From positions 25,038-89,037 of the forward strand of contig WRCO01000002.1 of the NCBI GenBank assembly GCA_009783855.1: a stretch of DNA of 64,000 bases. The letters run 5' to 3'. This DNA comes from Alphaproteobacteria bacterium (lineage in GTDB: Bacteria > Pseudomonadota > Alphaproteobacteria > Rs-D84). The translations under genes and the position numbers were made by a program. The notes under the pieces are model-generated. The model ran no database searches and was not told the origin of the DNA. It was given only the letters and a program-made list of their open reading frames with translations. Of this stretch, positions 13,562-54,932 are shown piece by piece (position 1 is the stretch's first letter; the number at the start of each line of letters is the position of its first letter).

Positions 13562-13580
13562 CTGACAGCTAACAACCGGG
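13553..13580. repeat. family B repeat (ctgacaactgacagctaacaac type)
   Basis: One of at least 7 copies of a gttgtcagttgttagctgttag-like element. Others are at 16570-16600, 16643-16677, 31931-31966, 32709-32744, 34998-35030 and 35188-35222. Confidence 0.65.
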
Positions 13581-13631: not shown

Positions 13632-14531
13632 CTAGTCCAACGCTCCCCTGTAACTTGGGTTATTTATCACTATGACCGCGCGGCGGCGCAATTGTTTAAG
13701 CTGTTGGTCGGCAAGGAACAGCGACCGCTTGAACGTCACATTCTGGCGCACGACTTCGTCAAGGTTTTCGAATTCCGCCATCTGCGTCCGCGAACAGACA
13801 ATCAAAACGGACCGGTCTTCTCCGCGCGGGGACCAAGTAAGTTCGGCAAGCCCCGCAATCCGCGCCCTTATATCTTCGGCAAGTTCGAATTCCGGAACCG
13901 TTATCCGGACCGGCACGCCGCCAAGGTTTCGCGCCTGACTCATCGCGTCGTCGCAATCCTTCGGCGTTGTCAATTTCGCCGCAATATCTTCCGGAATATC
14001 CACAAGGCGGATAAGCGTCGTATCAACGGGCAGGCCGCGCGTGCGGGAAAGAAGGGCAAGTTCGTCCCGCACGTCCGCGTCCGTTATGCTTACCGTCGGC
14101 ATTATCGTGCGGCCGATTACCATCTGCCACGCGATATGCGCGCGGGTTGATGCGCGAAGCATTTCCGCGCCGACAGGGTCAAGCGTGTCAATGGGCAGGC
14201 CCCGTGCGCGCAATGAATCCAATTCGCGCCGGACGTCCGCATCCGAAGGGTTTATTTGTATCTGCGCCGCGTGGTGAAGTTTTATATGGTCGTCTATGAT
14301 TTCTGAAAGCGCGCGGATGCGGTTGTCCGTCGATACCTGTCCCTTCATATTCATGATGCGCGCGCGCGCTGTAATGTCGCGGTCCGTTATCGGGTTGCCG
14401 TTAATGCTTGCGGCGATGGTGGCGGCGTTTGCGGTAAAGCCGCAAATAGAGCACAGAGCACAGACCAAAGAGCAAAAATGTATGCGTTTGGAAATTTTAT
14501 TCTTTAATATCGGCATTTGTTGGGTCTCCAT
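13632..14531 (-). CDS. surA: SurA-like periplasmic chaperone (N-terminal SurA domain; short form without a clear PPIase domain)
   Basis: Signal peptide. SurA_N-like helical region. Sits between lptD and rlmN, as in many alphaproteobacteria. Only 299 aa. Confidence 0.45.
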   Translation of the reverse strand: METQQMPILKNKISKRIHFCSLVCALCSICGFTANAATIAASINGNPITDRDITARARIMNMKGQVSTDNRIRALSEIIDDHIKLHHAAQIQINPSDADVRRELDSLRARGLPIDTLDPVGAEMLRASTRAHIAWQMVIGRTIMPTVSITDADVRDELALLSRTRGLPVDTTLIRLVDIPEDIAAKLTTPKDCDDAMSQARNLGGVPVRITVPEFELAEDIRARIAGLAELTWSPRGEDRSVLIVCSRTQMAEFENLDEVVRQNVTFKRSLFLADQQLKQLRRRAVIVINNPSYRGALD

Positions 14532-14570
14532 TGTTGTTATCTGTTATCTGTGCTCTGCGCGCAAAGCGCG

Positions 14571-16640: not shown

Positions 16641-16642
16641 AT

Positions 16643-16677
16643 TCAGTTGTTAGTCGTTAGCTGTTAATTGTTAATTC
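16643..16677. repeat. family B repeat between lptG and lptD
   Basis: attcagttgttagtcgttagctgttaattgttaattcg. Confidence 0.65.
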
Positions 16678-17749
16678 GCGGTCTTACGCCCGCAAGTATG
16701 AAAAACAAAACGGTTATGGCCAAGACCTGTCCCGCAAGGATTCCGAAAAAGCCCCAAAGCCCAATCGCCAAATCGCCAAGCACCATAAAAGCCGCCATCG
16801 CAAGAGACATCCCAAGCGTCGCCATCGGCGCCGCCATATTGAACCCGGCGCGGCGAAGGAGAGAGGATTTAAGCAGCGCGGCAAGGGCGATAAGGGCAAG
16901 CACAATACTCATAAGCGGGCCCAAAAACCTTGTCGACATTTCGGATAAAATGCGCCGCTGGTCCCTTGGGCGGAACGTGTCAAGCCTTTGCGCTTCGCGA
17001 ATCAGATCCAGCGAAGACAAACGCCGCACACGGAATATATTTCCGGGGTCCCTGTCCGCAAGGTTCAAATCCATATCCATTGAATCAAAGGTGCCGACGG
17101 CGAAGTTTTCATCCCTGAACTGTACGCTTCCCCTTTCCATCGCGATTGAAAGCCCGCGGTCGGTATGGATAAGTTTTCCGCTGTCGGCCGATATTATCAT
17201 CTGGTTTTTTGTGTCGCGGTTGTCGAAAAGCATCAATCGCGACAAATACGTTCCGGCGACCTTTTCAACAAAGACCACAAGCCCGCGCGACATCTGCGTG
17301 AATGTCGCCTCTTGCAATTTCAGGTGCGCAAGGCCGAACCGCATGTTCCATTGGGTGTCGTAAAACTTTGCCTGGGTCGCCGGCACGACAAACATATTCA
17401 TTGCGAAATGAAGCGCGACGATGAGCCCCGCAAACACAAGCGCGGGTCGCGCAACCTGCAGGGGGGAAAGACCCGCCGCCGCCGCAACCGTGATTTCGCG
17501 ACCCGATATAAGCCGCACATACACGAACATAATCGCGATAAATGTGGAAAACGGAATTATAATGGAAAGAATCAGGGGAAGCATCATGGCCGTAAGCCCA
17601 AGAAATCCGACAAGACTTATCCCGTATTGAATAAGAAAGCGCAGCATCGAAAGTATCTGCATCATCCAGGCAAGTCCGGCCAAGACAAGCAGCAGCATTA
17701 TAAAAAATGCAACAAGCTGTTTTGTGAAATAGTTCGATAGGGTTCTCAT
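16664..17749 (-). CDS. lptG: LPS export ABC permease LptF/LptG family (YjgP/YjgQ)
   Basis: 361 aa, 6 TM. YjgP/YjgQ-type architecture with a periplasmic beta-jellyroll insert. Immediately upstream of lptD. Confidence 0.75.
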   Translation of the reverse strand: MRTLSNYFTKQLVAFFIMLLLVLAGLAWMMQILSMLRFLIQYGISLVGFLGLTAMMLPLILSIIIPFSTFIAIMFVYVRLISGREITVAAAAGLSPLQVARPALVFAGLIVALHFAMNMFVVPATQAKFYDTQWNMRFGLAHLKLQEATFTQMSRGLVVFVEKVAGTYLSRLMLFDNRDTKNQMIISADSGKLIHTDRGLSIAMERGSVQFRDENFAVGTFDSMDMDLNLADRDPGNIFRVRRLSSLDLIREAQRLDTFRPRDQRRILSEMSTRFLGPLMSIVLALIALAALLKSSLLRRAGFNMAAPMATLGMSLAMAAFMVLGDLAIGLWGFFGILAGQVLAITVLFFILAGVRPRINN

Positions 17750-19670: not shown

Positions 19671-19757
19671 TTCGTGTTGGCGGCTTGTGCTGGTGGCTGG
19701 TATATGCCACGAATCACCAGCACAAGCCACCAGTCACAACGAACGAAGTGAGTAGAA
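19671..19757. repeat. family A palindromic repeat between nusA and infB
   Basis: ttcgtgttggcggcttgtgctggtggctgg ... ccacgaatcaccagcacaagccaccagtcac, followed by aacgaagtgagtagaaATG (infB start). Confidence 0.7.
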
Positions 19758-28181: not shown

Positions 28182-28245
28182 GGGCCAATTATAACACAAT
28201 AGCGTTGGCTGGCAAGAATTTTTGCAGGAACAAAATATATATGCC

Positions 28246-29196
28246 TTACGCCTTGTTGGCGTCGGCCAAGATTAACGATTGTAATTTTGTAAACGCGCGT
28301 TCTTCAATCTGTCTTACGCGTTCGCGCGAAATGCCCAATTTTTCCGACAATTGTTCAAGCGTCAGCGCCGGGTCGGACAGACGCCGCGCGACAAGAATCT
28401 CGCGGTCGCGTTCCGGCAGCGAGGCAAGGTGTTTGTGCAAAAGCTCGTGTCCGAATTTTCGAAACTGCAAATGCTCAATCCTGTCTTCGATGGATTCGGA
28501 ATCGTCCGCAAGATTGGACAGGATGTCCGTCCCTTCGCTTTCGTCGCTGTATGCGGGGCGGTTAAGCGAAAGGTCGCGCGCGCTTATGCGGCGGCTCATC
28601 CTTGTTACGTCTTGTTCCGGGACTTCCAGGTACTCCGCAATTTGTTTCGTCTGTTCGTCGGACAGGTTGTTGTCCATAATGCCAAGCGCGCGTTTCGCCC
28701 GCGCAAGGTTGAAGAACACGCGCTTTTGATTCGCGGATGTTCCGATTTTCACCATCGACCAGTTATTAAGGACGAAATCGTAAATCTCGGCCTTTATCCA
28801 AAACATCGCATAGGTCGAAAACCGAAACCCCCGGTCCGGGTCGAATTTTGATAAAGCCTGCATAAGGCCCAAATTTCCGGAAGCGATAAGTTCCGATATC
28901 GGAATGCCGTAATTCTTGAAATCATAGGCGACGGAAACCACCATGCGAAGATGGCTTGACACCAGTTTTTCCGCGGCGAACTTGTCGCGCGCATCGCGCC
29001 ATGCGACGGCGAATTCATGCTCTTCTTCGGCGGATAACAGGGGGAAAGCCTGGACCGACCTTATGTATCTTTCAAGGTTGGCGTCGTCGGACAGGGCGAC
29101 GGACGGCATGCCGTAAGCCGCCGGAAGCGCTGTCGCCGTTTTTTGGTTGTCTTTTTTCTTGTCTTTGTTTCCTTTCATGGTTAAATTATAGTGCAA
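28246..29196 (-). CDS. rpoH: RNA polymerase sigma-32 factor RpoH
   Basis: RpoH box QKRVFFNLARAKRAL. Regions 2 and 4 present (LSEKLGISRERVRQIEERAFTKL). Confidence 0.9.
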   Translation of the reverse strand: MHYNLTMKGNKDKKKDNQKTATALPAAYGMPSVALSDDANLERYIRSVQAFPLLSAEEEHEFAVAWRDARDKFAAEKLVSSHLRMVVSVAYDFKNYGIPISELIASGNLGLMQALSKFDPDRGFRFSTYAMFWIKAEIYDFVLNNWSMVKIGTSANQKRVFFNLARAKRALGIMDNNLSDEQTKQIAEYLEVPEQDVTRMSRRISARDLSLNRPAYSDESEGTDILSNLADDSESIEDRIEHLQFRKFGHELLHKHLASLPERDREILVARRLSDPALTLEQLSEKLGISRERVRQIEERAFTKLQSLILADANKA

Positions 29197-29261: not shown

Positions 29262-29966
29262 ATGAAATCCATGCTTGAAAAGTTCAAAAAGAACAAAACC
29301 GCCGTGCCGGCCCAGAAAAAAACACTTTCGGACCATGCGGAAGACGCGCTGTACCGCGAAGTTAATGAGGAAGTACAGGCACAGCAAATGTACGATTTCA
29401 TAAGAAAATACCTGCGCGTTCTTGTTGCGGTTGCGGCGCTTGCGGTCGTGGTTGTTGTCGCGCTTCAATTGTCAAAGGCTCAAAATGCCAAAACTTTGCG
29501 GCAATCCGCATCGGCATACGAATCGGCCATAATGATGCTTGACGCGGGCAACCCGGTTGCCGCCCGCGAAGCGCTTGTCCGCGCGGCAAGAAGCTCAAGC
29601 GGCGGTATGGCTGACCTTGCATTGTTTTCGGCCGCAAGGATAGATTTGCAAATGGGCGACAGCGACGCAGGAGTGGCAAAACTTGAACAGCTTGTCCGGA
29701 ATGGCCGGACGCGCGATTTTCGCGACCTTGCGCTTGTCAAGCTTGCCATGATGAGGGCGGAACACATGACGGGACGTCAGTTCGAGCAGTTCCTTGCCCC
29801 CGTACAGACCAAACGGTCGCCGTTCTATTACACCGGCATGCTTTTGGTTGCGAAAAAATATCTCTCTGTCGGCGAAGATGTCGCCGCCCGCAGATGGCTT
29901 GACAGAATTACGTCCGACCGCGGCGCCCCGCCAAGCGTTGTGGCAGAGGCGGAAATGTTGAGGTAG
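29262..29966 (+). CDS. YfgM-like membrane-anchored TPR protein (UPF0070)
   Basis: Cytoplasmic N-terminus, one TM (VLVAVAALAVVVVVAL) and a periplasmic TPR-like domain. Immediately upstream of the bamB-like gene, as in the yfgM-bamB arrangement. Confidence 0.55.
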   Translation: MKSMLEKFKKNKTAVPAQKKTLSDHAEDALYREVNEEVQAQQMYDFIRKYLRVLVAVAALAVVVVVALQLSKAQNAKTLRQSASAYESAIMMLDAGNPVAAREALVRAARSSSGGMADLALFSAARIDLQMGDSDAGVAKLEQLVRNGRTRDFRDLALVKLAMMRAEHMTGRQFEQFLAPVQTKRSPFYYTGMLLVAKKYLSVGEDVAARRWLDRITSDRGAPPSVVAEAEMLR

Positions 29967-29971
29967 AACAA

Positions 29972-30066
29972 AGAGCATAGGGCACAGATAAGTGTTGAAA
30001 TTAAAAAGATATTTTACGGATATTAAAAAAGCATCTATGCTCTATGCTCTATGCTCTATGCTCTTG
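29972..30066 (+). promoter_or_regulatory. conserved 5' cassette E1 plus (CTATGCT)x4 heptamer tract preceding the bamB-like gene
   Basis: cacagataagtgttgaaattaaaaagatattttacggatattaaaaaagcatct followed by atgctctatgctctatgctctatgctc. Near-identical copies are at 38930-39003 and 53440-53530; a diverged copy is at 40925-41040. Confidence 0.7.
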
Positions 30067-30765
30067 CTTTTGGCTGCCTGTTCCAAAACCGACCCTGTTT
30101 TGCCCGGAACGCGGCATCCCATATTCCATGCCGGCGGAATCAATCTTTTGGACCGGGCGGTGCCGGATTCCGCGCTTGCCGATATACGGGAGACCGGCAT
30201 ATATGACAATACGTATCGACAGGATTCGAACAATGTCGTCTGGCGGGATACAGAACGCGTATTTTCCGGACTTCCCACAAGCGCCCGCGTTGCGGGCGAA
30301 AGACGGCCGATGGTGGCGGGCGACCATATAATCGCAGGACTGTCGACCGGCGAAGTCGTAAAGGTAAACCGCAACACCAAAGAACCCGAATGGGTCGCGG
30401 ATGTATTCAGGACGTCCGCCATGACCGGCGGGTCAAGCATCCTTGACATAGTCGCGCCTGTTGTCATTGAAAACGACAGATTCATATATGCCGGCGGGCT
30501 TGGCAACGCTTTCTGCAAACTTGATTTTAACACGGGCGCTCGGATATGGTGCGCCGACATCGGCGTGGGCAAGCCGTTCATAGTCCGTGCGGGCGTATCA
30601 TACGTTGTCGGCACGAACGGATTCCTGTATGCGATTGACACCCGCTTGGGCGATGCGTTCTGGCGTGCGGAAATAAGAAGACAGGCAGAGCCGAAAATCT
30701 CCGGCAACGTTATTGCCGTTGGACGGGAAAAATTCGATGCAAGAACGGGGGATAAATTAAAGTGA
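29992..30765 (+). CDS. bamB: BamB-like PQQ beta-propeller lipoprotein (short form, 257 aa)
   Basis: Lipobox LLLAAC|S. PQQ-like repeats (DRFIYAGGLGNAFCKLDFNTGARIWCADIGVG, YVVGTNGFLYAIDTRLGDAFWRAEI). The start is ambiguous (GTG at 29992 or ATG at 30037). Confidence 0.55.
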   Translation: MLKLKRYFTDIKKASMLYALCSMLLLLAACSKTDPVLPGTRHPIFHAGGINLLDRAVPDSALADIRETGIYDNTYRQDSNNVVWRDTERVFSGLPTSARVAGERRPMVAGDHIIAGLSTGEVVKVNRNTKEPEWVADVFRTSAMTGGSSILDIVAPVVIENDRFIYAGGLGNAFCKLDFNTGARIWCADIGVGKPFIVRAGVSYVVGTNGFLYAIDTRLGDAFWRAEIRRQAEPKISGNVIAVGREKFDARTGDKLK

Positions 30766-34980: not shown

Positions 34981-35033
34981 AGTGGTATTATAACATAATA
35001 ACTGACAACTGACAACTAACAGCTAACAACTAG
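34981..35033. repeat. family B repeat at the 5' flank of the T4CP gene
   Basis: aactgacaactgacaactaacagctaacaac. Confidence 0.65.
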
Positions 35034-35035
35034 AG

Positions 35036-35722
35036 ATGAAAAATATACCAAGGATTTATATAAATGAAAATTTGGAAGTTGGGCGAAGTTTCCCGGTGTC
35101 CAGGGACATCGCGCATTATTTGACCCGTGTTATGCGAACGGACAGATGTTTGGTGTTCAATTATGGAAAAGAGTTCAAGGCTGAGCTTTCAGTTGTCAGC
35201 TGTTCGTTGTTAGTTGTCAGTCCTACTGGGCGGCCCGACCCGTCGAACAATTTGACGCTTGCGTTCGCGCCGGTAAAACAGGCGCGGATGGAGGAAATGC
35301 TTTCCATGGCGACCCAGATGGGCGTAAAAAGGCTTCAGCCCGTAATCACTGCCTTTGTAAATGAACATCATCCGAAATGGGAAAGGATTAAAAAAATTGT
35401 CATAGAGGCGGCGGAGCAATCCGGAAGAAACAGCGTGCCGGAATTGGCAGAGCCGCAAAAATTTACAGAATTTCTGCAGGGGGTAAAAGACTTGGTTTTT
35501 GCGGACGAACGGGCCGCGAGCCCCCGGTCCTTTCCAGATTCCGGGCTTGCGTTGCACGCGCCCCGGAATGACACAATCGTTTTGATAGGGTCAGAGGGCG
35601 GATTTTCAGACGCGGAATTTGATGCGCTGGACAAAGCGGGCGCGACTGGCATAAACCTTGGGCCGACAATTCTTCGGGCGGAGGTCGCTGCGGTGGTGGC
35701 GATTGCGAAAGTTGTTGGTTAA
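35036..35722 (+). CDS. rsmE: 16S rRNA (uracil1498-N3)-methyltransferase RsmE, with an in-frame family B repeat insertion
   Basis: N-terminus MKNIPRIYINENLEVG. SPOUT C-terminal IVLIGSEGGFSDAEFDALDKAGATGINLGPTILRAE. Residues ELSVVSCSLLVVSPTG are encoded by repeat 35188-35222. Confidence 0.8.
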   Translation: MKNIPRIYINENLEVGRSFPVSRDIAHYLTRVMRTDRCLVFNYGKEFKAELSVVSCSLLVVSPTGRPDPSNNLTLAFAPVKQARMEEMLSMATQMGVKRLQPVITAFVNEHHPKWERIKKIVIEAAEQSGRNSVPELAEPQKFTEFLQGVKDLVFADERAASPRSFPDSGLALHAPRNDTIVLIGSEGGFSDAEFDALDKAGATGINLGPTILRAEVAAVVAIAKVVG

Positions 35723-37644: not shown

Positions 37645-38923
37645 GGCGTATATGAACCTGATAAAAATGATTTTCACCGGAACAGACAGCGCGCCCCGCC
37701 TTACGTCTTGCGGCGACGAACGCGGCGCAAGTCTTCTTGAAACGCTTCTTGCCATCGGGCTTGTCGCGGCGATGGCGCCTTTTGCGTACAACCGCGTGCT
37801 TGACGTAAGCCGCGATATAGCCGACGTCGCCGCCGCGCGGCGCATTCATAATTGGAAGGAAGCCGCCAAGGGATTTATCCGCGCAAACCAGATGGATTGG
37901 GAGGACGATGCGATTTTTGAGCTTTCCGAACGCGACCTTGTCGCGATACGGGCGCCGGACGAAGGAAAACAGGCCATCTTTCCATACGCCGCGTTTATTG
38001 AAAAATTCAGTCATGCGGGCGGCACGACCATAGAGGCGTATATTCTGTTCCCCGGCGAATTCGACGGAATCCGTATGCACCGCATCGCGCACCATCTTGG
38101 CGCGGACGCCGCCGTCGCGGGCGACGCGCAAATCGCATTTTCCGCAAGCGGCGGCTGGAGCATAGAATCGGACATATTGGAAGAAAATGATATTGTGTTC
38201 CGCGTGTCCGTAAATATGCCGATAGACGATTCATACGCGTTCATGCACCGGGTGGATACCGGCGACGAAAGGCTTAATACCATGGAGCGTGACCTGTCCA
38301 TGTCGCGCAACGACATAGTCCATGCGGGCGCGGTTAACGCAGGTCTTCTTGATTCCAAAATGGTCGGTGCATGGTTTGCGGGCGGCGGTGCATTTTCCGC
38401 GGACGAAGCCGTATTCCCCCAAGGCGCCAATGTCGACGGCGGCGGAGTATCGTTCGCGGCGGTCCGCGTTGTGGGGGATATTATCGGTTTTCGTAATATA
38501 CATGCGGGCATATTCGCGGGCGGCGGCGGGGCCTTGAACTGGTCCGCTCAGGGGAATATAATCGCCGACCGGGTGAATATAGCCGAAGCGGTTCACGTTG
38601 GAAGAAACATGACCGTAAGGTCTCCAAACGTCCGAACGGTTTCCGGATTCCTTGGCATAAGCGTGCATTCTCTGGCGACCCCGTTTGTATCCACCGAAGA
38701 ATTGCGGTTTGCGGACGGCTTTGGGCTTTCAATTTCCAACGAACTTTCGGCAAGCTTTACCGACGGGCCGTTAAGGCTTGGCAACTGGGCGTTTCCGCGG
38801 ACACCTGCGCCAAGATTTGCGGACCTTGTCCTTACACAAGGAGGCGCAGTCAAAGGCGGCGTGCCAACAGGATTTGAAAACATAATGAGCAGGAATTGGA
38901 AGGCTTTAAGGCCAAGGGAATAA
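37619..38923 (+). CDS. TadE/G-like pseudopilin-family protein 2 (G|ASLLETLLAIGLVAAMAPF, Glu at +5)
   Basis: Prepilin peptidase-type site ERG|ASLLE. Gly-rich beta-helix-like C-terminal half (GANVDGGGVSFAAVRVVGDIIGFRNIHAGIFAGGGGALNW). Start alternatives at 37652 or 37667. Confidence 0.45.
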   Translation: MIEGRRIVKAYMNLIKMIFTGTDSAPRLTSCGDERGASLLETLLAIGLVAAMAPFAYNRVLDVSRDIADVAAARRIHNWKEAAKGFIRANQMDWEDDAIFELSERDLVAIRAPDEGKQAIFPYAAFIEKFSHAGGTTIEAYILFPGEFDGIRMHRIAHHLGADAAVAGDAQIAFSASGGWSIESDILEENDIVFRVSVNMPIDDSYAFMHRVDTGDERLNTMERDLSMSRNDIVHAGAVNAGLLDSKMVGAWFAGGGAFSADEAVFPQGANVDGGGVSFAAVRVVGDIIGFRNIHAGIFAGGGGALNWSAQGNIIADRVNIAEAVHVGRNMTVRSPNVRTVSGFLGISVHSLATPFVSTEELRFADGFGLSISNELSASFTDGPLRLGNWAFPRTPAPRFADLVLTQGGAVKGGVPTGFENIMSRNWKALRPRE

Positions 38924-38929
38924 AAATAG

Positions 38930-39003
38930 AGCAAAGACAATAGAGCGCAGATAAATGTTGAGATTAAAAAGATATTTTACGGATATTAAAAAAGCATCTA
39001 TGC
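38930..39003 (+). promoter_or_regulatory. conserved 5' cassette E2 (no heptamer expansion)
   Basis: cgcagataaatgttgagattaaaaagatattttacggatattaaaaaagcatctatgct. Confidence 0.7.
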
Positions 39004-40307
39004 TTTTGCCTGTGCGAACGCGTTCTCGCAGCGAGCGCGGCGCGACGCTTGTCGAACTTCTTCTTGCGCTGGCGGTGGCGGCGGCCATGCTTCCATTTAT
39101 AATAAGACAGGCCGACGTGCGGACCCGCCGCGCGGAAAATATAAAAGCCGCCGCCGACCTTGGCAAAGTCAAATCCGCGCTTGAAAGATATATGGAAGCG
39201 AACAGGCACGAGCTTTTCTCGACCATAAGCCGGAACGTCGTGCGCGTATCGATTTCCGATTTGGAAGAACACGGGCTTGATACCGCCAATCTTGACAAGT
39301 CGGAACAGTTCCAGATGCGCGTCGTTAAAAGCGCGGACCGGGGCGGGCGGTCGTTTCTTCAGGGCGTCGTCATCATGGACACGGAAGGCATCGCGCCGAT
39401 AAGGACGCGCGAAATCGCGGCAATCGCCGGCGGCGGCGCGGGATTCGCCGACGATAACATAACATACGGCGCATTCGGAACATGGCGCGTAAGCGCGAAC
39501 GTATGGAACGCGCGGTTTACCGACAGGTCGCTTCTTGAAGTCACGGATGCCATACGGTCGGGCGAAGAATTCCTGCGCCGCATAGTGTACGAAGACGGCG
39601 GCGCGATGATGCATTCGCCGCTTGCCCTTGGCGGGCACGACATAGTCAACGCGCGGTCGGTGTTCGCGGAATCCGCGCGCTTTGCCGAATTCGTGAATTT
39701 TACGAACGCATCGGCAAGCCGCCTTGTCATGGAAGGCAAACCGACACTTGACGGCAATGTGACCATATCCGGAGAATCAACGGTTTCGGGCGTGCTGAGT
39801 TCCGATTCACGAAGCATGGAAGTCGGCCGCATGACGGTATCCGGCACTTCGCGGTTCGGCACGGTTAATGCAAACGAATTATGGGCGGGCGATTTGGAGC
39901 TTGCCGGATTTTCGGTCCAAATTGACGAGCGTCGCCCCGCCACGCTGTCGGTCGGCCGGTCGATTGACATGACCGGCGGACGCGTTGTCTCCATGCTTGT
40001 CGCGGTGGGACACGGGGGAAGCACTACGCCGCGGCTTTTCGTAAAAGACCGGGTTGAAGACGCAAGAAATCCCGAATATTTTTGGGATGTCGCGACGGGT
40101 GAAGCCATGCTTTCCGACATATTTATCCCCGCGCTTTCCAATATGGCGCGGACCGCCATAGGCCGCGAACAGCCGGGAACGGAATCTCATCGCATCCTGT
40201 CCCAGGTTGCGAACAACGCCAACGCGACGGTCGCGGATTATATGCGCGCGCTTGCCGAAATAGAACGCCGCGTCACGGCAAGGTTTGATGCGTTGAATTT
40301 GGAATAA
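38955..40307 (+). CDS. TadE/G-like pseudopilin-family protein 3 (SERG|ATLVELLLALAVAAAMLPF)
   Basis: Class III signal with Glu at +5. Beta-helix-like repeats (GNVTISGESTVSGVLSS...MTVSGTSRFGTV). The probable true start is the ATG at 39000 (MLLPVRTRSRSERG leader). Confidence 0.45.
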   Translation: MLRLKRYFTDIKKASMLLPVRTRSRSERGATLVELLLALAVAAAMLPFIIRQADVRTRRAENIKAAADLGKVKSALERYMEANRHELFSTISRNVVRVSISDLEEHGLDTANLDKSEQFQMRVVKSADRGGRSFLQGVVIMDTEGIAPIRTREIAAIAGGGAGFADDNITYGAFGTWRVSANVWNARFTDRSLLEVTDAIRSGEEFLRRIVYEDGGAMMHSPLALGGHDIVNARSVFAESARFAEFVNFTNASASRLVMEGKPTLDGNVTISGESTVSGVLSSDSRSMEVGRMTVSGTSRFGTVNANELWAGDLELAGFSVQIDERRPATLSVGRSIDMTGGRVVSMLVAVGHGGSTTPRLFVKDRVEDARNPEYFWDVATGEAMLSDIFIPALSNMARTAIGREQPGTESHRILSQVANNANATVADYMRALAEIERRVTARFDALNLE

Positions 40308-40426: not shown

Positions 40427-40924
40427 ATGAAAATAACATGCCCATTTTGCAAAATCGAATACGCGGCGAAAATCCCAAAGGGACGGCGCGCGGAATGCAT
40501 CGTGTGCGGCCATGTATGGGCGCCGGACGGCGCGCGCGGAAGGAACAGGATTCTTATGTGGCTTTTGATGGCGGCTTTCGCGCTTTTGGTGGCGGTGATT
40601 GCGATTACCATGACGACAAGGTATGCCCCGGCAAATAAGACAGAAGAAACAATCGTCGTCGAAATGACCGGCTTTCGGCGGACTGCCGCCGCGGACGGCG
40701 CGCGCATTGTCATATCCGGAAGGGTCAAGAATATGTCCGGAAGGGTTTACGGAATTCCCGACATCATGCTTGTCCTGCGGGACGATGCGGGTGAAATTGT
40801 ATTTACCCAAAGAATCATGCCGCCCGCGCCGGTTCTGGATATTGGAGAGGTTGCGAAATTTTCCCACACCCTTTCCGGCGTTCCGGAAAATGCCAGAGCG
40901 GCCCGGGCAGAGTTTGTAAGATAG
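40427..40924 (+). CDS. zinc-ribbon (MJ0042-type CxxC) + TM + DUF3426-like domain protein
   Basis: MKITCPFCKIEYAAKIPKGRRAECIVCGHVW zinc ribbon, a single TM, then a ~100 aa beta-rich domain. This architecture matches DUF3426 proteins. Confidence 0.5.
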   Translation: MKITCPFCKIEYAAKIPKGRRAECIVCGHVWAPDGARGRNRILMWLLMAAFALLVAVIAITMTTRYAPANKTEETIVVEMTGFRRTAAADGARIVISGRVKNMSGRVYGIPDIMLVLRDDAGEIVFTQRIMPPAPVLDIGEVAKFSHTLSGVPENARAARAEFVR

Positions 40925-41040
40925 CACATAGAACACAGATAATAGAACATAGATAGGAGAACGAACAAATGTTGAGATTCAAAAACAATTTTACAGGTCT
41001 TTGGAAAGCATCTGTGCTCTATGTTCTGTGCTCGATGCTC
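40925..41040 (+). promoter_or_regulatory. diverged conserved 5' cassette E3 with degenerate heptamer tract
   Basis: acagataatagaacatagataggagaacgaacaaatgttgagattcaaaaacaattttacaggtctttggaaagcatctgtgctctatgttctgtgctcgatgctc. Confidence 0.55.
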
Positions 41041-41493
41041 TTGGTCTCGGCGCGAGCCGCGCCGACATGTCCGCCGTGCGTATGCCCGTCCATACCGCCG
41101 TCGATTTTTTCGACAAGCACGGATTGGGAAGCGGTGACGGGGATGCGCCTTTCCGAATTTATGGTTTCGTTCGGTCGCGATGGAAGCATCGGCAATATCG
41201 GGTGGGAGATATATTTCCTTGACGGATTTCCATGCTATGGCCAATCGGAGACCGCGCGCATGTGGGTAAGTCCGTCGCGCCATTACGCAATCGACGGCGG
41301 CGCCGACGCGCGCGGCCGCATCACGTGCCTTTATGCGCCGAAAACCGTAAAGCTTGCATGGCGCGAGGCAAGGCGCGACGCGGCGCAGGCGCGCACACGC
41401 GGGATGGCCGTTTGCGAAGTGGAGCACAGCGGACGGAACATCACAATCCGATTGGACAAATGCGAAAGGACGGATTGGGGTGATTTGCGATAA
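40969..41493 (+). CDS. hypothetical secreted Cys-rich protein (174 aa)
   Basis: Signal peptide after the cassette leader. APTCPPCVCPSIPP motif. 8 Cys. Confidence 0.4.
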   Translation: MLRFKNNFTGLWKASVLYVLCSMLLVSARAAPTCPPCVCPSIPPSIFSTSTDWEAVTGMRLSEFMVSFGRDGSIGNIGWEIYFLDGFPCYGQSETARMWVSPSRHYAIDGGADARGRITCLYAPKTVKLAWREARRDAAQARTRGMAVCEVEHSGRNITIRLDKCERTDWGDLR

Positions 41494-41512
41494 CAACCGT
41501 AAGGCGTAAGGC

Positions 41513-42478
41513 GTGAAGCGTGAGGAATTTGTTTTCATCGTTGAAGAACAGGACGCGGGTTTGCGTGTCGATAAATTTATCGCGTCCAGATTGACCGAAT
41601 ATTCTCGTTCTGAAATCCAAAAATTTCAAATAACGAAATCTGGCGCTGCAACAAAGCTTTCCGAAAAGGTAAAGCTTGGTGAAAAATATGAAGTTGCCGT
41701 TTTAATAAATATGCCTTGTGCCTTGTGTCCTATGCCTTCTTCGAAAAAAATATCCTTGGATATTTTATTCGAAGACGACGACATCATCGTTGTCAACAAG
41801 CCGCGCGGAATCGCAATGTATCCGGGCGCGGGACGCGACAGCGGAACATTGGTGCAAAGCGTTCTGGCGCATACGAATCTGTCGTCCATCGGCGCGGACG
41901 GCATGCGGCCCGGCGTTGTTCACCGCATCGACAAAGACACGTCCGGCGTTGTGATTTTTGCAAAAACGGATTCGGCGCACCGTGCGCTTGTCACGGTTTT
42001 TTCCGAACACAATCTGGTGCGGAAATATATCGCGTTTATTTGGGGCGTGCCGAACTGGCTTTCCGCGGATATTTCCGGAAACATAGGGCGGTCGACGCGC
42101 AACCGCCAAAAAATGACTATGGTCAAAACCGGCGGAAAGCCCGCGCACACAAGCGCCGAGGCTATAAACGTCTGGCCGCGCGCGAATATTTCGGAATTGC
42201 GGTGCACTTTGGACACCGGCCGCACGCATCAGATTCGCGTCCATCTTGCCGCGCATGGTTTTCCCGTTTTGTGCGACCCGCTTTACGGGCGGGGCGGGGC
42301 GCGGCTGGGCAGTGTCAAGGACCCGGAATTATTGGAATTTCTGCGTGAAAACCGCGGTCAGATGCTTCATGCCGAAGTATTGGAATTAACGCATCCGATA
42401 ACCGGCGCGCCATGCAAATTCCGCGCTAAATTGCCGGGGGACATGAGTGCGTTGAAAGAGATTCTTAACGAAAAGTGA
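41513..42478 (+). CDS. rluD: pseudouridine synthase RluD/RluC family, with an in-frame family C heptamer repeat insertion
   Basis: S4-like N-terminus. Catalytic HRIDKDTSGVVIFAKT. GTG start. Residues NMPCALCPMPSS are encoded by atgccttgtgccttgtgtcctatgcctt (41711-41740). Confidence 0.85.
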   Translation: MKREEFVFIVEEQDAGLRVDKFIASRLTEYSRSEIQKFQITKSGAATKLSEKVKLGEKYEVAVLINMPCALCPMPSSKKISLDILFEDDDIIVVNKPRGIAMYPGAGRDSGTLVQSVLAHTNLSSIGADGMRPGVVHRIDKDTSGVVIFAKTDSAHRALVTVFSEHNLVRKYIAFIWGVPNWLSADISGNIGRSTRNRQKMTMVKTGGKPAHTSAEAINVWPRANISELRCTLDTGRTHQIRVHLAAHGFPVLCDPLYGRGGARLGSVKDPELLEFLRENRGQMLHAEVLELTHPITGAPCKFRAKLPGDMSALKEILNEK

Positions 42479-42605
42479 AAAATGAAGAGTGAAAAGTTGT
42501 TGTGTCGCGACAAAGCCGCGAACGCAACCACTTTTCACCCGTCATTATTCATTTGATTGATTTCCCCCAATATGATAAAATAAGTTGAAATAAAGAGAGG
42601 ATAAT

Positions 42606-46034: not shown

Positions 46035-46706
46035 TTACAACTTCACAATTCCATTCGTTGCGAACAGCTGTCCGTTTTCTTCGTATATTTTTCCGCCGGA
46101 TTCAAGCACCATCAATTCTCCGGCGCAAAGCTCCGCGTAATTCAAAGGGTCGCTTATAAACGCGTCAAACTTTCCCGTTGCAACAAACGCCAAATCAAGC
46201 GCCGCACAGCCGGTCGCACGCTTCGCGCCGGTATTCGGTATCCGGTATTCGGTATTCGAATAACCGATGGTAAGGTCCGCCGGATCGGACAGTTTCGACA
46301 CGCGGTGGCGGTTGGAATGGAACGCACTGAAAATAAAACATCCCGCGTCTTTTTCCGCGTAATACAATTTATCCGCAATCGGCGCGTATGTAAGGCCTGC
46401 GCGCGCCTCGCCGTTCACGCGAAGCGCAAGCGTTATCGCAAAATGTGAATTGCCGCGCACGAAATTCTCGGCGCCCGAAAACGCCAAAACAAATTCGGAA
46501 ATCCCGTCGCCGTCCGTCGACATGTTCGGAGTCAATACGCCCGCAGTCGGCCGCACAAGCGTCAAATCCGACAGAATCATTTGTTCGATTCTTTGTTCGG
46601 CCCTGCGCACAAAATCGCGCGCGCCGGGCAATGATTGCTGAAGCTGTTCCACCTCTCCGAAATCGCGGCGGATACCCGTCGCCGTCCGCGACAATGCCGC
46701 AAACAT
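46035..46706 (-). pseudogene. inositol monophosphatase (SuhB) family, degenerate and N-terminally truncated
   Basis: C-terminal AALDLAFVATGKFDAFI motif is present. The catalytic DPxDGT is replaced by FSGAENF. A family D 52-bp repeat lies upstream (46756-46808). Confidence 0.4.
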
Positions 46707-47816: not shown

Positions 47817-48036
47817 ATTAGTGGCTGGTGGCTAGTGATTAGTGGTTGGTGGTTTGTGGCTTGTGCCGGTGACTGGTACGGTTGTCTGATATATTAGACA
47901 ATCATTAATTAACGCATAAATTAAAGGCTGTCCACTATAGTGGACAGCCTTTAATTACAGGCCATTAATACGAACCACCGGCACGAGTCACGAGCACGAA
48001 TCGCCAGCACAAGCCACAAGCACAAGTCACCGGCCA
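47817..48036. repeat. largest family A composite palindromic repeat (~220 bp) with central perfect palindrome ggctgtccactatagtggacagcc
   Basis: Left arm tggtggctagtgattagtggttggtggtttgtggcttgtgccggtgactgg. Right arm cgaaccaccggcacgagtcacgagcacgaatcgccagcacaagccacaagcacaagtcaccgg. Confidence 0.7.
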
Positions 48037-49366: not shown

Positions 49367-49413
49367 AAATCCCCCGGAATTTGCTTTGCATTATACCATA
49401 AATCTTTCCTATA

Positions 49414-50718: not shown

Positions 50719-50720
50719 TA

Positions 50721-53439: not shown

Positions 53440-53530
53440 CATGGATGGAGCACAGATAAGTGTCGAGATTAAAAAGATATTTTACGGATATTAAAAAAGC
53501 ATCTATGCTCTGTGCTCTGTGCTCTGTGCT
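53440..53530 (+). promoter_or_regulatory. conserved 5' cassette E4 plus (CTGTGCT)x4 heptamer tract
   Basis: cacagataagtgtcgagattaaaaagatattttacggatattaaaaaagcatctatgctctgtgctctgtgctctgtgctc. Confidence 0.7.
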
Positions 53531-54932
53531 CTTTTGCGGCTTTGCCGCAGATGCCGCGCCGGTAAGCAATATTCCGGGCGCCATTGCCGAATACGGCCAT
53601 TGGAATACAGATGAAACCCTTCGCCCCATGGTCGACGGAATCCGCAGTGATATAGCCGCGTTCGAAGCCGGGTTCGCAGAACAAGTATTTACCCAAGGTG
53701 ACCAGTTCGTGCCGCCCGAGGCGAAAATCGGACTTGCCATGATTAACGCGTTCACGATGGTCGCGCAATCAATCGACCGGACGCTTGGAAGTTTTGTCAT
53801 CGCGCTTCTTGTCGTTCTGTTCGCGTTCTGGGTGATGATGGAAACGTACCAGGTTATGAAGACCGGCGGCAATATAAGAGAACTTGCAATGAAAATCGTG
53901 CGCAAGGGTTTGTGGATTGCCGTATGGATTATCATACTGGCGTTCGGGCCCGCGCGATTATTCATGATGGTCGCAAGCCCGGTTATACAGGCGGGTATAA
54001 TCATGTCCGACCTTATACTTGATACCATGACCGAAGTCGCGGGCCTGCATCTTCTTGACACATGCGGCGCGATAAGGGGGTATGTCGCGGAAAGGCATAC
54101 GGGCGCCGGGCTTTTCAATGCGGAAGCCACGGCAGATATGCTTTGCATCCCGACAAGGCTTTCCGGATTCTTTTACACGTGCGTCGCGGCGGGATGGAAA
54201 TGGGTGGCGGCGGGCGCCGGAAATGTCTGGGCGGCGGGAACAACCGCGGTGGCGGGCGGGGTCGGCGGCGCCCTTCTTGGCGGCGGAGTGGCCGGGACGC
54301 TTGCCGGAGCCGGCGTCGGCGCCCTGACCGGCGGCGCGATAAGCGGCGGCAACATGCTTACATTCATCATGGGCCTTATATTTATCGCCATATTCGCGCG
54401 CAATATCTGGCTTTTCGCAATCGAAGCGCTTGGTGTTGTGGCAAGTCTTTTCCTTGCCGTCATGTTCTTGCCGTTCACCGCCGTCGCGGAATGTTTCGGG
54501 GGCGGCGAGACAAGCCTTAAAGACCGGGGGATATTCACGGAATTCTTCAAAATGCTTGCCAATATGGTCGGCGGCGGAAAATTGAAATTCCGCGGCCAGC
54601 TTCAGACATTCATAAACGCCGCGATTTATTTTGTGGCCTTGTCCGTTGTGTCTGCCATCGGGCTTGCCCTTCTTGCACAGGTCATCGGACCAAGTCCCGC
54701 GGATTTTGCGGACTCCGTCCCGACGGCGGAAAACAGCACAAGTTTCATGATGGTGCTTGTCGTCGGAATGCTTGTGTCGCATCTTGCCAAAAAGGCGGGC
54801 GATATTGCAAAAGACCTTGGCGGGTCCATAGATGCCGAATTTGGGAAACGGCTTGACGCACAGGCGCAATCTTTACGCGGCTGGGCGGTAGGCAGCGCAA
54901 AGAAATGGTACGGGGTGTTTAAGGGGAAATGA
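53460..54932 (+). CDS. polytopic membrane protein, paralog P5 (cassette-type leader; Gly-rich GxxxG segment)
   Basis: 490 aa. Signal MLCALCSVLFCGFAADA. AGTTAVAGGVGGALLGGGVAGTLAGAGVGALTGG. C-terminus AKKWYGVFKGK. Confidence 0.4.
   Translation: MSRLKRYFTDIKKASMLCALCSVLFCGFAADAAPVSNIPGAIAEYGHWNTDETLRPMVDGIRSDIAAFEAGFAEQVFTQGDQFVPPEAKIGLAMINAFTMVAQSIDRTLGSFVIALLVVLFAFWVMMETYQVMKTGGNIRELAMKIVRKGLWIAVWIIILAFGPARLFMMVASPVIQAGIIMSDLILDTMTEVAGLHLLDTCGAIRGYVAERHTGAGLFNAEATADMLCIPTRLSGFFYTCVAAGWKWVAAGAGNVWAAGTTAVAGGVGGALLGGGVAGTLAGAGVGALTGGAISGGNMLTFIMGLIFIAIFARNIWLFAIEALGVVASLFLAVMFLPFTAVAECFGGGETSLKDRGIFTEFFKMLANMVGGGKLKFRGQLQTFINAAIYFVALSVVSAIGLALLAQVIGPSPADFADSVPTAENSTSFMMVLVVGMLVSHLAKKAGDIAKDLGGSIDAEFGKRLDAQAQSLRGWAVGSAKKWYGVFKGK

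Follow-up and report, generated by a model that had tools for sequence, protein, structure and literature searches.

A segment of ~80–130 nt recurs at the starts of unrelated envelope genes in an alphaproteobacterial MAG and probably represents a portable module, in which a translation start region and a signal peptide lie together inside a hairpin of heptamer repeats and which has been copied from gene to gene. Five copies (c1–c5) are located in the window, i.e., the whole stretch of 64,000 nt that was analyzed, while a sixth (c6) lies on a different contig of the same MAG (Table 1). As read from the sequence, the module would consist of an intercistronic spacer serving as 5′ arm and carrying a Shine-Dalgarno (SD)-like GGAG, AGAG or AGGG, the start codon, a translated Lys-rich n-region of 15 codons, a hydrophobic core encoded by ~4 tandem RTGCTCT heptamers which double as the 3′ arm, and finally a lipobox, AxA site or prepilin cleavage site.

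Table 1. Sequence features of the cassette copies (positions refer to the window; arrows mark cleavage sites).
Copy	Feature	Position	Strand	Description
c1	5′ arm	29964..29989	+	TAGAACAAAGAGCATAGGGCACAGAT; inverted repeat; begins at upstream TAG stop; occupies whole yfgM-like/BamB-like spacer; reverse complement of downstream heptamer array (ungapped pairing 24/27); SD-like AGGG 9 nt ahead of start
c1	Signal peptide, BamB-like lipoprotein	29992..30081	+	GTG start
c1	n-region	29992-30036	+	MLKLKRYFTDIKKAS
c1	h-region	30034-30066	+	MLYALCSMLLLL; encoded by (ATGCTCT)x4; doubles as 3′ arm
c1	Lipobox LAAC, Cys30	30079-30081	+	LLLLAAC
c1	Predicted cassette peptides	from 29992 start		MLKLKRYFTDIKK
c1, c2, c3, c6	Invariant 37-nt core	30000..30036	+	Codons 4-15, LKRYFTDIKKAS; identical in the four copies (position of c1)
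c2	5′ arm-type spacer	38927..38952	+	ATAGAGCAAAGACAATAGAGCGCAGAT
c2	Leader, pilin-like protein	38955..39041	+	n-region MLRLKRYFTDIKKAS fused to MLLPVRTRSRSERG, then ATLVELLL
c2	Cleavage site			Prepilin-type G↓A..E (ERG↓ATLVE)
c3	5′ arm	53445..53456	+	ATGGAGCACAGA, includes GGAG
c3	Partner of 5′ arm	53509-53520	+	TCTGTGCTCTGT
c3	Signal peptide, polytopic membrane protein	53460..53555	+	GTG start; n-region MSRLKRYFTDIKKAS
c3	h-region	53505-53532	+	Encoded by ATGCTCT, then (GTGCTCT)x3
c3	Cleavage site			ADA↓A
c4	Module, 174-aa Cys-rich protein	40924..41058	+	Diverged copy
c4	5′ arm	40924-40951	+	Inverted repeat
c4	AGGAG	40955-40959	+
c4	Start codon ATG	40969	+	Followed by MLRFKNNFTGLWKAS
c4	Array	41011-41041	+	Cleavage site ARA↓A; fold z -2.2
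c5	Module, SurA-like protein downstream of lptD	14424..14563	-	Most diverged copy
c5	5′ arm	14563-14543	-	Inverted repeat; fold z -3.3
c5	Array	14474-14446	-	Inverted repeat with 5′ arm
c5	Start codon ATG	14516 (or 14531)	-	GGAG within loop
c5	c-region		-	CGFTANA↓A; sequence common to c3, c6
c6	Cleavage site			ANA↓S

Copies of the cassette and their extent

The 37-mer ATTAAAAAGATATTTTACGGATATTAAAAAAGCATCT occurs as an exact match three times in the window (at 30000, 38963 and 53468, all on the + strand), where 100 dinucleotide-preserving shuffles predict none. An nhmmer profile built from the four copies listed in an earlier note on this DNA (c1–c4) recovered these with E-values of 1e-21 to 1e-29 and revealed the diverged c5, which heads the SurA-like gene on the minus strand (14533..14448, E 3e-9). 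The sixth copy, found by an exhaustive HMM search of proteins with the N-terminal profile, carries the identical 37-mer and heads a 221-aa protein (locus tag FWE64_01945; loci L015, L016, and L009). The recurring cassette is thus real, its fourth copy being diverged, and it extends beyond the window as well.

Several details of the earlier description have changed. The positions 29992, 38955, 53460, and 40969, which the cassette had been said to precede, are start codons inside it. Instead of ~60 nt, the shared segment reaches from about -28, taking in the whole intercistronic spacer, to +52 in c2 (within the first heptamer), +75 in c1 and c4, and ~+100 in c3, c5, and c6, where the similarity stops at the signal-peptidase site. 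An upstream stop codon lies 25–45 nt before each of the six copies, and a TAA adjoins the start codon in c1, c2, c3, and c6. The downstream genes were rightly called unrelated, local blastp matching their N-terminal part only; the proposed array of five paralogues including c3 dissolved, with blastp joining p1–p4 weakly and finding no similarity between these and c3. As claimed, the identity is one of nucleotides, and it reaches into non-coding sequence; at the protein level, the peptide is conserved in c3 orthologues.

Beyond this MAG, a scan of a genome collection returned four chance matches only (in Bacteroidota and Chlamydiae MAGs), and two metagenome scans and one viral scan came back empty; these are weak negatives, as the perfect copy in the JGI contig L009 was missed. 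An assembly artefact is ruled out because the same sequence is present in independent ENA, JGI, and NCBI assemblies: the assembly L005, from a different sample, is identical to the window over 4236 nt, and c6 is identical among L009, L015, and L016. The paralogue of the c2 gene at 37652 possesses a 25-residue leader (MNLIKMIFTGTDSAPRLTSCGDERG) which aligns from residue 1; this gene was rejected as a further copy, the DNA-level alignment covering the pilin domain only. Its leader resembles the cassette in K-x-I-F-T-G, a likeness which is suggestive but without significance. The c2 protein itself shows a weak Pfam match to N_methyl. A Shufflon_N match on the first pilin-like protein falls far under the cutoff, and a shufflon or invertible switch was dismissed, with the copies in direct orientation, 9–14 kb apart, housekeeping genes between them and no recombinase seen.

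In the four near-identical copies, 37 central columns are invariant without a single synonymous change, whereas 29% of the flanking columns vary (P ~3e-6). A purely protein-level constraint accounts for the invariant core only marginally (rough estimate ~0.05), and the pattern therefore leaves room for constraint at the nucleotide level. A dual use, compatible with the portable module, has been considered in which the cassette is translated and its core serves in addition as an operator, bound by a small RNA or a protein and defining a regulon. Such an operator appears rather unlikely. All cassette genes encode envelope proteins and GATATT can be read twice within the core, 10 nt apart, but c4, c5 and the loops found in related genomes have not kept the core, and a search of the window for an antisense or small-RNA partner revealed no complementary stretch of 12 nt or longer. 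Moreover, the positions that vary beside the core belong to the start codon and to codons 2–3, where gene-by-gene tuning is possible, and very recent copying could yield the same pattern. A CtrA box (TTAA-N7-TTAA) was looked for by inspection and is not in the core.

Heptamer arrays and the hairpin around the start codon

Tandem arrays with a period of seven are enriched ~100-fold in the window (25, as opposed to 0.2 in a Markov control), and arrays with periods of 8–12 are absent from it. Of 23 arrays, 14 fall into the interval from -60 to +110 around a start codon (3.4 at random), and arrays are found at the lptD, surA-like, BamB-like, rsmE, and murG genes as well. At the cassette, the heptamer array is preceded, in the intercistronic spacer, by its own reverse complement, and pairing of the two arms would leave an AT-rich loop of 40–68 nt with the start codon at its 5′ edge. 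Predicted folds of c1 (-34.3 kcal/mol, z -3.3), c3, c4, and c5 have z-scores of -1.7 to -3.3. In c2, a complementary partner downstream of the spacer is absent and the fold is no better than shuffles (z -0.6), which indicates that a copy can persist without the hairpin.

Folds in related genomes are stronger still, reaching -49.5 kcal/mol (z -6.9) and -52.7 kcal/mol (z -9.2) at the bamB genes of L006 and L008, -53.5 kcal/mol (z -7.7) at an exported-protein gene of L006 and -63 kcal/mol in L010; the L006 and L008 hairpins comprise 22–43 bp. The heptamer units at bamB differ between the genomes, with AGAGCAT/ATGCTCT in the window, AAGGCAT/ATGCCTT in L006, GGAATAA/TTATTCC in L008, and ACTGGTT in L007. 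The arms thus covary, orthologous genes in four genomes keeping the hairpin with different units, though in arms which were chosen by pairing. Since this choice biases the arm alignment toward structure, the 84% of cells that pair (74% in shuffles, with 0 of 500 shuffles reaching the observed value, and 25–58% in slid controls) and the double changes in 12 of 19 pairs have to be read with it in mind. Covariation of this kind could also be produced at the DNA level by palindrome correction through template switching. The sense fold is more stable than the antisense fold in eight of the ten loci which differ by >5 kcal/mol, only a lean toward RNA (sign test not significant).

Due to the conservation of the hairpin at orthologous genes with different heptamers, it is taken to work in the mRNA. 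There it would mask the sequence immediately before the start, making initiation dependent on unwinding by ribosomes which terminate on the upstream cistron (translational coupling), and/or it would provide a duplex for RNase III. At three loci, a promoter-like sequence follows the 5′ arm, which may there be situated outside the mRNA; these are the window gene starting at 28181 (-), its orthologue in L008, and the orthologue of c3 in L011.

These outlying arms would also suit a selfish palindromic repeat akin to the Rickettsia RPE, REPINs or MITEs, inserted in frame at 5′ ends, whose hairpin is a substrate for mobility and whose coding capacity is secondary. In line with such an element, complementary array pairs are spread over the window, some of them in frame within genes for cytoplasmic or inner-membrane enzymes; compared with the solved MurG structure 7d1i, one arm in the MurG-like gene amounts to 8 inserted residues. 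A single unit family dominates within a genome, and orthologous sites differ between genomes. We nevertheless consider this origin improbable. Units vary between loci of one genome, which speaks against a single element family, neither a target-site duplication nor a transposase nearby was seen in the sequence examined, and c2 holds only half of the module. Furthermore, array positions are kept at orthologous sites across genomes with 57% protein identity, a pattern more in keeping with maintenance than with recurrent insertion, and the sense-strand unit holds more purines than pyrimidines in 14 of 16 arrays just upstream of starts (tallied by eye), pointing to a strand-specific constraint.

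The cassette as a probable translated signal peptide

The cassette most likely acts as a translated export signal, its start codon and Lys-rich n-region being followed by the hydrophobic core, as judged from the translations. In all six copies its reading frame runs uninterrupted into that of the downstream protein, and c1–c6 display the hallmarks of Sec-type signal peptides, i.e., a charged n-region, an h-region of 7–15 residues, and an AxA site, a lipobox (L-[AS]-[GA]-C) or a prepilin site (G↓(F/M/A)xxxE). There are five K/R residues in the first 13 positions, and the hydrophobic core is coded by (RTGCTCT)x4 and ends in one of the three types of site. Canonical n-h-c signal peptides of 29–32 residues result only when the cassette is included; those beginning at the internal ATG (MLYALCS...) have no charged n-region. 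Orthologues of the BamB-like protein (57–58% identity) likewise possess signal peptides of 29–31 residues with long K-rich n-regions, despite lacking nucleotide similarity to the cassette. In L007 and L008 these n-regions are equally long and free of internal ATG or GTG codons, L008 containing one in-frame TTG. No ESPR, YSIRK, or KxYKxGKxW domain was detected in c1–c4 (Pfam) or in c2, c3, c4, and c6 (NCBIfam) at E <= 0.01.

Automated gene calls conflict at these loci. NCBI PGAP uses the cassette start, both for c1 (29992; 257 aa, MCL2757864.1) and for c3 (490 aa; the polytopic membrane protein is possibly VirB6-like), whereas the ENA call begins at the internal ATG and the JGI call later still. 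The calls differ by 15–22 codons, a difference by which the export signal is either kept or removed.

The omission of the cassette from the ENA and JGI calls would agree with a reading, along the lines preferred in the earlier note, by which it is an untranslated promoter or 5′-UTR that co-regulates the genes, with the true start at its 3′ end. In-frame ATG or GTG codons are indeed located there in c1–c4 and c6, the core is free of synonymous change, and a promoter-like TTGAAA-18-GATATT lies within the cassette of c1–c3, ~7 nt ahead of the internal ATG; a strong promoter precedes the ATG of the window gene 28181 (-) by 6 nt, and leaderless-type starts may therefore occur in this genome. However, the promoter-like sequence agrees with the sigma-70 hexamers at 9 of 12 positions only, a single match of a quality expected 0.4 times by chance, and conserved -35 and -10 hexamers across all copies were not found, the match being lost in c4 and c5. 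The internal ATG is merely the first three bases of a heptamer unit, and the cassette genes are operon-internal. Together with the frame kept in all six copies, the charge-free signal peptides from the internal start, the L007 and L008 orthologues and the peptide conserved among c3 orthologues, this leaves an untranslated leader quite doubtful. What has been borne out of the earlier proposal is the existence of a structured nucleotide element, in the form of the hairpin between spacer and heptamer array. It corresponds to no Rfam family: at the gathering threshold, covariance models found two tRNAs and no cis-regulatory family in the window, and in E-value mode the plant miRNA-precursor models that appeared, far under threshold, reflect hairpin shape only.

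A contingency locus, in which adding or losing a single 7-nt unit would change the reading frame and turn the gene on or off, is suggested by a non-multiple-of-three repeat in the hydrophobic core of surface-protein signal peptides but is very improbable, given that arrays comprise only ~4 units, that genes presumed essential or housekeeping (lptD, surA-like, BamB-like, rsmE, murG) are built in the same way, that copies are identical in independent assemblies of different samples (L005 and the window; L009, L015, and L016), and that slippage needs no complementary upstream array. Repeat-number polymorphism was not seen among the assemblies compared, which are consensus sequences in which minor unit-number variants would be missed.

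Probable origin and spread of the module

The module probably stems from one of its carriers. The cassette peptide LKRYFTDI matches the N-termini KRIFSKI, KRFLSKI, and KRIFTKI of orthologues of the c3 protein (53460) in many alphaproteobacterial MAGs, a conservation which holds at 35–48% identity; P0194 (MNRLKRIFTKIIIAV) and c3 (MSRLKRYFTDIKKAS) are identical at 9 of 15 positions. Among the matches listed, the motif K-R-[IFY]-F-[ST]-[KD]-I is present in 25 of 87 c3 homologues as opposed to 1 of 120 BamB homologues, the sole carrier among the latter being the protein of the window itself. Because the motif is found in c3 homologues and none of the other 119 BamB-like homologues listed has it, the n-region is probably native to the c3 family and would have been transferred from there to other genes. 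Intragenomic recombination or gene conversion, plausibly aided by the repeated heptamer arrays, would have carried it onto at least 4–5 unrelated envelope genes, with the BamB-like, pilin-like, Cys-rich, and SurA-like genes and the 221-aa gene as presumed recipients.

A second genome type shows the same kind of sharing. In the L006-type organism, a different cassette, MRL[MI]K..S..TK..IC, is common to three unrelated genes, namely the BamB-like gene, the exported-protein gene following a sigma factor, and the c3 orthologue L010. The loops of this cassette and those of the window have AT-richness alone in common when aligned, and homology between them at the nucleotide level was rejected.

If the portable module is read correctly, signal peptides can be passed, in the form of nucleotide modules, from one gene to an unrelated one of the same genome, this has happened independently in at least two related genome types, and one tandem repeat is at once the arm of an mRNA hairpin and the code for a hydrophobic core. 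More tentatively, the paired complementary heptamer arrays of this alphaproteobacterial lineage might as a whole constitute an undescribed and maintained cis-element which brackets start codons, doubles as signal-peptide-core code and serves genome-wide to gate or couple translation or to allow RNase III processing, rather than being a by-product of replication slippage. The exchange of arm-loop modules between unrelated envelope genes would then provide each genome with its own house signal peptide.

Comparison with known systems

With the ESPR of autotransporters and two-partner secretion proteins and with the YSIRK and KxYKxGKxW motifs, the cassette shares the principle of a conserved N-terminal extension ahead of an ordinary Sec signal peptide in unrelated secreted proteins. 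In contrast to these, the extension described here comprises 15 residues, is charged, is confined to one species and has no sequence match to them.

Rickettsia palindromic elements (RPE) are short palindromes of an alphaproteobacterial genome which are located in spacers as well as in frame within genes. REP and REPIN elements have been described as short palindromic repeats (PMC3116915). As far as these descriptions go, each RPE or REP family has one conserved sequence, whereas here only the architecture of tandem heptamers and their complement is constant; a RAYT-type transposase was not seen in the sequence examined.

The opa genes of Neisseria contain CTCTT coding repeats in the signal-peptide region, which mediate phase variation. 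Both there and here, a signal peptide has its hydrophobic core encoded by a non-multiple-of-three repeat, and the 5′ ends of several genes agree at the nucleotide level. The opa genes, however, are paralogues with a high and variable repeat number, while the cassette genes are unrelated and combine short, stable arrays with an upstream complement.

In the 5′-UTR of Haemophilus influenzae hmw1A, (ATCTTTC)n forms a long hairpin which is processed by RNase III, and expression is controlled by the hairpin together with this double-strand-specific RNase (PMC12721329). The hairpin predicted here similarly employs a heptamer array as the arm of a long mRNA hairpin at a surface-protein gene. In hmw1A, this concerns one phase-variable locus whose array has at least 11 units and pairs with a G-rich arm free of repeats, all of it within the 5′-UTR, in contrast to ~4 units, two repeat arms, a coding 3′ arm, many loci, and no length variation seen here.

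The closest parallel in sequence design is offered by direct repeats of the heptamer TAACTGA just upstream of starts in marine Beggiatoaceae, some Cyanobacteria, and Bacteroidetes, for which a role in translation has been proposed, not shown (MacGregor 2015, PMC4679880). Heptameric simple repeats in general are said to be over-represented in bacteria (Mrazek 2007, as cited in PMC4679880 and PMC4692102). In both systems, arrays of 7-nt units (2–6 copies) lie a few nucleotides upstream of starts and often replace the Shine-Dalgarno sequence; they precede housekeeping genes and occasionally occur in frame within ORFs, with MurG named in both. Tandem 7-nt arrays are enriched near starts in the window as well, although most units differ from TAACTGA. 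The units CAACTGA/TAACAAC at 34996-35032 and 13553-13574 are related to it. A single indirect repeat was reported among 169 TAACTGA sets (PMC4679880). In contrast, the arrays described here are built from many, genome-specific units, are usually complementary pairs and form predicted hairpins around the start codon, their downstream arm encodes a signal-peptide core, and whole arm-loop modules are common to unrelated genes. Since these arrays form covarying complementary pairs, the unexplained excess of heptamers near bacterial starts would, if this reading is right, gain a testable structural hypothesis.

Cassette copies and reading frame

The cassette, a segment shared at gene starts which comprises a start codon, a 15-codon Lys-rich n-region and a heptamer-encoded hydrophobic core, is present in at least six copies (c1–c6) within ~82 kb of the genome. 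The 37-mer ATTAAAAAGATATTTTACGGATATTAAAAAAGCATCT occurs exactly three times in the window, all on the forward strand (0 expected in shuffled sequence), and reading and aligning the four sites described in the earlier note confirmed both its consensus and the diverged copy c4. This set was extended by an nhmmer profile built on the four copies, which revealed a more diverged fifth one (E 3e-9) at the start of the SurA-like ORF immediately downstream of lptD. An exhaustive HMM search of 1.84 billion representative proteins with an N-terminal profile added one further bearer, P0122, whose full-length form (221 aa, locus tag FWE64_01945) is encoded on a different contig of the same metagenome-assembled genome (MAG), with an identical 37-mer (c6). 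The window (G+C 52%) contains pnp, nusA-infB, lptD-surA, der, a yfgM-like/BamB-like pair, virD4, rsmE and mraY; its proteins are annotated by NCBI as 'MAG: ... [Alphaproteobacteria bacterium]' with FWE64_ locus tags, and a second MAG of the same species carries FWE17_ tags.

Positions of cassette copies, heptamer arrays and related features (a slash marks cleavage; window coordinates unless a locus of another contig or genome is named)
Feature	Position	Strand	Detail
c1, BamB-like lipoprotein	29992	+	37-mer 30000; LAAC lipobox
c2, pilin-like protein	38955	+	37-mer 38963; ERG/ATLVELLL, prepilin-type site
c3, polytopic membrane protein	53460-54932	+	37-mer 53468; ADA/A
c4, 174-aa Cys-rich protein	40969	+	ARA/A
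c5, SurA-like protein	14516	-	match 14533..14448; ANA/A
c6, 221-aa protein	L015 7290		ANA/S
Example array site	16560-16690	-	
Example array site	19678-19732		
Example array site	34996-35221		
Example array site	41498-41738		
Example array site	42473-42554		
Example array site	47854-48019		
Example array site	3019-3080		
In-frame arrays, MurG-like gene	57890-57916; 57969-57995		first and second arm
In-frame array, ORF 5-955	440-505		
In-frame array	46228-46259		
In-frame array, rsmE	35191-35221		
Sigma-70-like promoter	28182-28215	-	TTGCCA-17-TATAAT; ATG at 28181
5' arm, same gene	~28240-28255		
Second pilin-like leader	37652-37726		25 residues, MNLIKMIFTGTDSAPRLTSCGDERG
Region upstream of c3	48041-53434		
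LpoB-like core	L006 4131-4180		ATGCCTT x4.6; window 23862
417-aa lipoprotein core	L006 2874-2915		TCTATGC x3.4; window 22572
c3-orthologue module	L014 6100-6290		8-nt units AGTGAAAG / TCACTTAT
ORF in paralogue array	L014 2992-3342		23S_rRNA_IVP / bAvd-type Pfam matches

Every copy begins with ATG or GTG, immediately preceded by an in-frame TAA in c1, c2, c3 and c6, and in all copies the reading frame is continuous into the downstream protein. The encoded peptide opens with M-[LS]-[KR]-L-K-R-Y-F-T-D-I-K-K-A-S, continues as a hydrophobic stretch and has its cleavage motif at residues 29-32; a start at the cassette-terminal ATG/GTG would give signal peptides (MLYALCSMLLLLAAC...) without a charged n-region. 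The likeness among c3, c5 and c6 spans the c-region (TTTGCGGCTTTRCCGCA...) and ends at the cleavage site, a boundary consistent with a signal-peptide unit; similarity ends past the heptamer array in c1 and c4 and within the first heptamer in c2. On sequence evidence, a translated signal peptide is the best reading of the cassette, rather than a promoter or UTR.

Annotation pipelines differ in their start calls for c1, c2 and c3, and likewise for c6. NCBI PGAP uses the cassette start (257, 450 and 490 aa for c1, c2 and c3), ENA an internal ATG (242, 435 and 475 aa), and JGI calls for cassette genes are 235 and 468 aa; the shorter ENA and JGI calls drop the n-region or the greater part of the signal peptide.

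Origin of the peptide

Signal peptides just as unusually long (MIKNVINFIKQTTGYWLLVTGSFILLLAAC, MFKVQNLYEVKRIRNILFLIPCSLFLFAC and MRLMKILSMITKRICPMPYALCLIALCAC) are found in the closest BamB-like orthologues (P0002, P0003 and P0004; 57-58% identity), and at the nucleotide level their genes do not resemble the cassette. An internal ATG/GTG as alternative start is absent from the MIKNVINFIKQTTGYWLLVTGSFILLLAAC and MFKVQNLYEVKRIRNILFLIPCSLFLFAC orthologues, and locus L008 has one in-frame TTG. More distant BamB-like orthologues carry ordinary lipoprotein signals of 17-20 residues. Orthologues of c3 in many alphaproteobacterial MAGs (35-48% identity) share a conserved N-terminal motif, e.g., MKLVKRFLSKILICAM, MLIKKIFSKIIICVLG and MNRLKRIFTKIIIAV, and the homologue P0194 has 9 of 15 N-terminal residues in common with c3. 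Both comparisons argue for translation of the cassette. A loose motif pattern matches 25 of 87 c3 homologues as opposed to 1 of 120 BamB homologues, the latter being the window's own protein. The peptide thus shows protein-level conservation that shared nucleotide sequence cannot account for. Most likely, the cassette peptide belongs to the c3 family, and the other cassette genes would be recipients. The leader of the second pilin-like protein contains K-x-I-F-T-G, resembling K-R-Y-F-T-D of the cassette, which may reflect older kinship or a likeness already in place that eased conversion of c2.

In the c3 protein there are about six transmembrane helices; the family to which it belongs adjoins mraY in many alphaproteobacterial MAGs (L011, L013, L014). 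The best PDB matches of its AlphaFold model (pLDDT 77) are weak ones to TrwI/VirB6 of the R388 type IV secretion system (E 0.08-0.13, probability 0.85-0.93). The supposed array of five paralogues is better described as four plus one, since the four genes upstream of c3 are weak paralogues of one another (19-25% identity) and kinship to c3 is not detectable. In a relative, such a paralogue array also holds an ORF with IVP/bAvd-type matches.

Heptamer arms and predicted hairpin

The hydrophobic core is written in tandem heptamers, (ATGCTCT)x4 in c1 and ATGCTCT followed by (GTGCTCT)x3 in c3, and the reverse complement of the array (AGAGCAT/AGAGCAC) lies in the spacer upstream of the start; a repeat search of the window lists these arm pairs as inverted repeats I9, I13, I18 and I25. 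The 5' arm fills the spacer and begins at or within ~12 nt of the upstream stop codon, an operon-internal position. In predicted RNA folds of every module but c2, the arms pair to enclose an AT-rich loop of 40-68 nt whose 5' edge carries the start codon; stems in the window span 12-27 bp, with z between -1.7 and -3.3. Within or beside the 5' arm, 9 nt ahead of the start, is an SD-like AGGG, AGAG or GGAG; c4 and c5 have their start deeper inside the loop, which holds a good GGAG. A nucleotide-level module is therefore present, with a probable regulatory hairpin.

Related genomes were compared at syntenic loci (L006, L007, L008 and L010-L014). The layout of the BamB-like gene is common to the window, L006, L007 and L008, with a different unit in each, and the relatives' predicted hairpins are very strong.

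Arm units and predicted hairpins in the window and in related genomes
Locus	5' arm unit	3' arm unit	Stem	kcal/mol	z
BamB-like, window	AGAGCAT	ATGCTCT			
BamB-like, L006	AAGGCAT	ATGCCTT	22 bp	-49.5	-6.9
BamB-like, L008	GGAATAA	TTATTCC	~40 bp	-52.7	-9.2
BamB-like, L007	beyond contig end	ACTGGTT			
Exported-protein gene, L006			~29 bp	-53.5	-7.7
c3 orthologue, L010			31 bp	-63	

Across nine modules, with arms chosen by pairing, 84% of aligned cells pair versus 74% in shuffles (0/500 reach the observed value), both-sided changes occur in 12 of 19 pairs, and slid registers give 25-58% pairing. As judged from these alignments, the modules share a conserved architecture with covarying arms. Quasi-palindrome correction by template switching could also keep the arms complementary without selection.

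The L006-type organism has another cassette with AAGGCAT/ATGCCTT-type arms, common to three unrelated genes: the BamB-like gene (MRLMKILSMITKRIC), an exported-protein gene after a sigma factor (MRLIKLVSISTKLIC) and the c3 orthologue in L010 (MRLMKIFSTKIRRIC). This cassette also resembles the c3-family motif (MKLVKRFLSKI), and its existence makes module sharing a property of the lineage rather than an accident of one genome. Two L006 genes, for an LpoB-like protein and a 417-aa lipoprotein, have hydrophobic cores in heptamers where their window orthologues have ordinary ones; arrays thus appear to overwrite signal-peptide cores by lineage. The period is not strictly seven, as the L014 module consists of 8-nt units.

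Arrays in the window and related genomes

Period-7 arrays are enriched ~100-fold in the window (25 versus 0.2 in a Markov control), and the same count found none of periods 8-12; L006 has 18 in 20.8 kb and L008 11 in 7.9 kb. Fourteen of 23 arrays fall between -60 and +110 relative to a start codon, compared to 3.4 at random. Tandem arrays of 3-6 units occur across the whole window, mostly as complementary pairs 16-170 nt apart, and also in operon spacers. A 34-bp arm pair encloses the lptD start, three genomes have a heptamer-array hairpin in the nusA-infB spacer, each with its own unit, and the rsmE start is bracketed by arrays in the window and L006, not in L007. Some genes whose products are cytoplasmic or inner-membrane enzymes also contain arrays or array pairs in frame. 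Compared with a solved MurG (PDB 7d1i), the first arm in the MurG-like gene inserts 8 residues and the second takes the place of a variable linker. One exported-protein gene has a near-consensus sigma-70 promoter ending 6 nt before its ATG, which implies a leaderless or nearly leaderless mRNA, and the 5' arm of its heptamer pair lies upstream of this promoter.

Operator and promoter readings

The 37-nt core might double as a nucleotide-level operator: its columns are invariant among c1, c2, c3 and c6 between flanks that vary at 8 of 22 columns just upstream and 8 of 33 downstream (P ~3e-6 under a uniform rate; by rough estimate ~0.05 if only synonymous sites are free). However, the sites that vary beside the core belong to the start codon (ATG or GTG) and to codons 2-3, and each gene could tune these separately; no complementary partner of the core was found in the window, and the core is not retained in c4, c5 or the relatives. 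A promoter is rejected, since all six copies lie 25-45 nt past the stop codon of a same-strand gene and the single promoter-like match within the cassette (TTGAAA-18-GATATT; 9/12 positions, 0.4 expected by chance) is weak and lost in c4 and c5. Rfam returned nothing but, in E-value mode, sub-threshold plant miRNA-precursor models, matched because of the hairpin shape. Given also the in-frame signal peptides, the earlier note's preference for a promoter or 5'-UTR over a peptide was not borne out; what survives of its interpretation is the nucleotide-level module, with a probable regulatory hairpin.

Proposed mechanism and known systems

The signal-peptide module may have spread by gene conversion or illegitimate recombination, with the repeated arms as possible homology handles. 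The hairpin would act in the mRNA, where initiation would depend on unwinding by ribosomes terminating upstream (translational coupling), and/or it might be an RNase III substrate by analogy with the heptamer hairpin of Haemophilus influenzae hmw1A, which is one (PMC12721329). As to action in RNA rather than DNA, 10 loci differ clearly in stability between sense and antisense folds, and 8 of these favour the sense strand (not significant); in three loci the 5' arm lies upstream of promoter-like sequence.

A general excess of heptameric repeats has been described (PMC4692102), and TAACTGA heptamer arrays, whose function is not known, lie beside start codons in Beggiatoaceae and others (PMC4679880). 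The in-frame arrays inside enzyme genes recall Rickettsia palindromic elements. In the literature searched, with partial coverage, no description was found of complementary paired arrays which both surround a start codon and code for the core of a signal peptide. Known on their own are arrays of heptamers beside start codons and 5' modules common to surface-protein genes.
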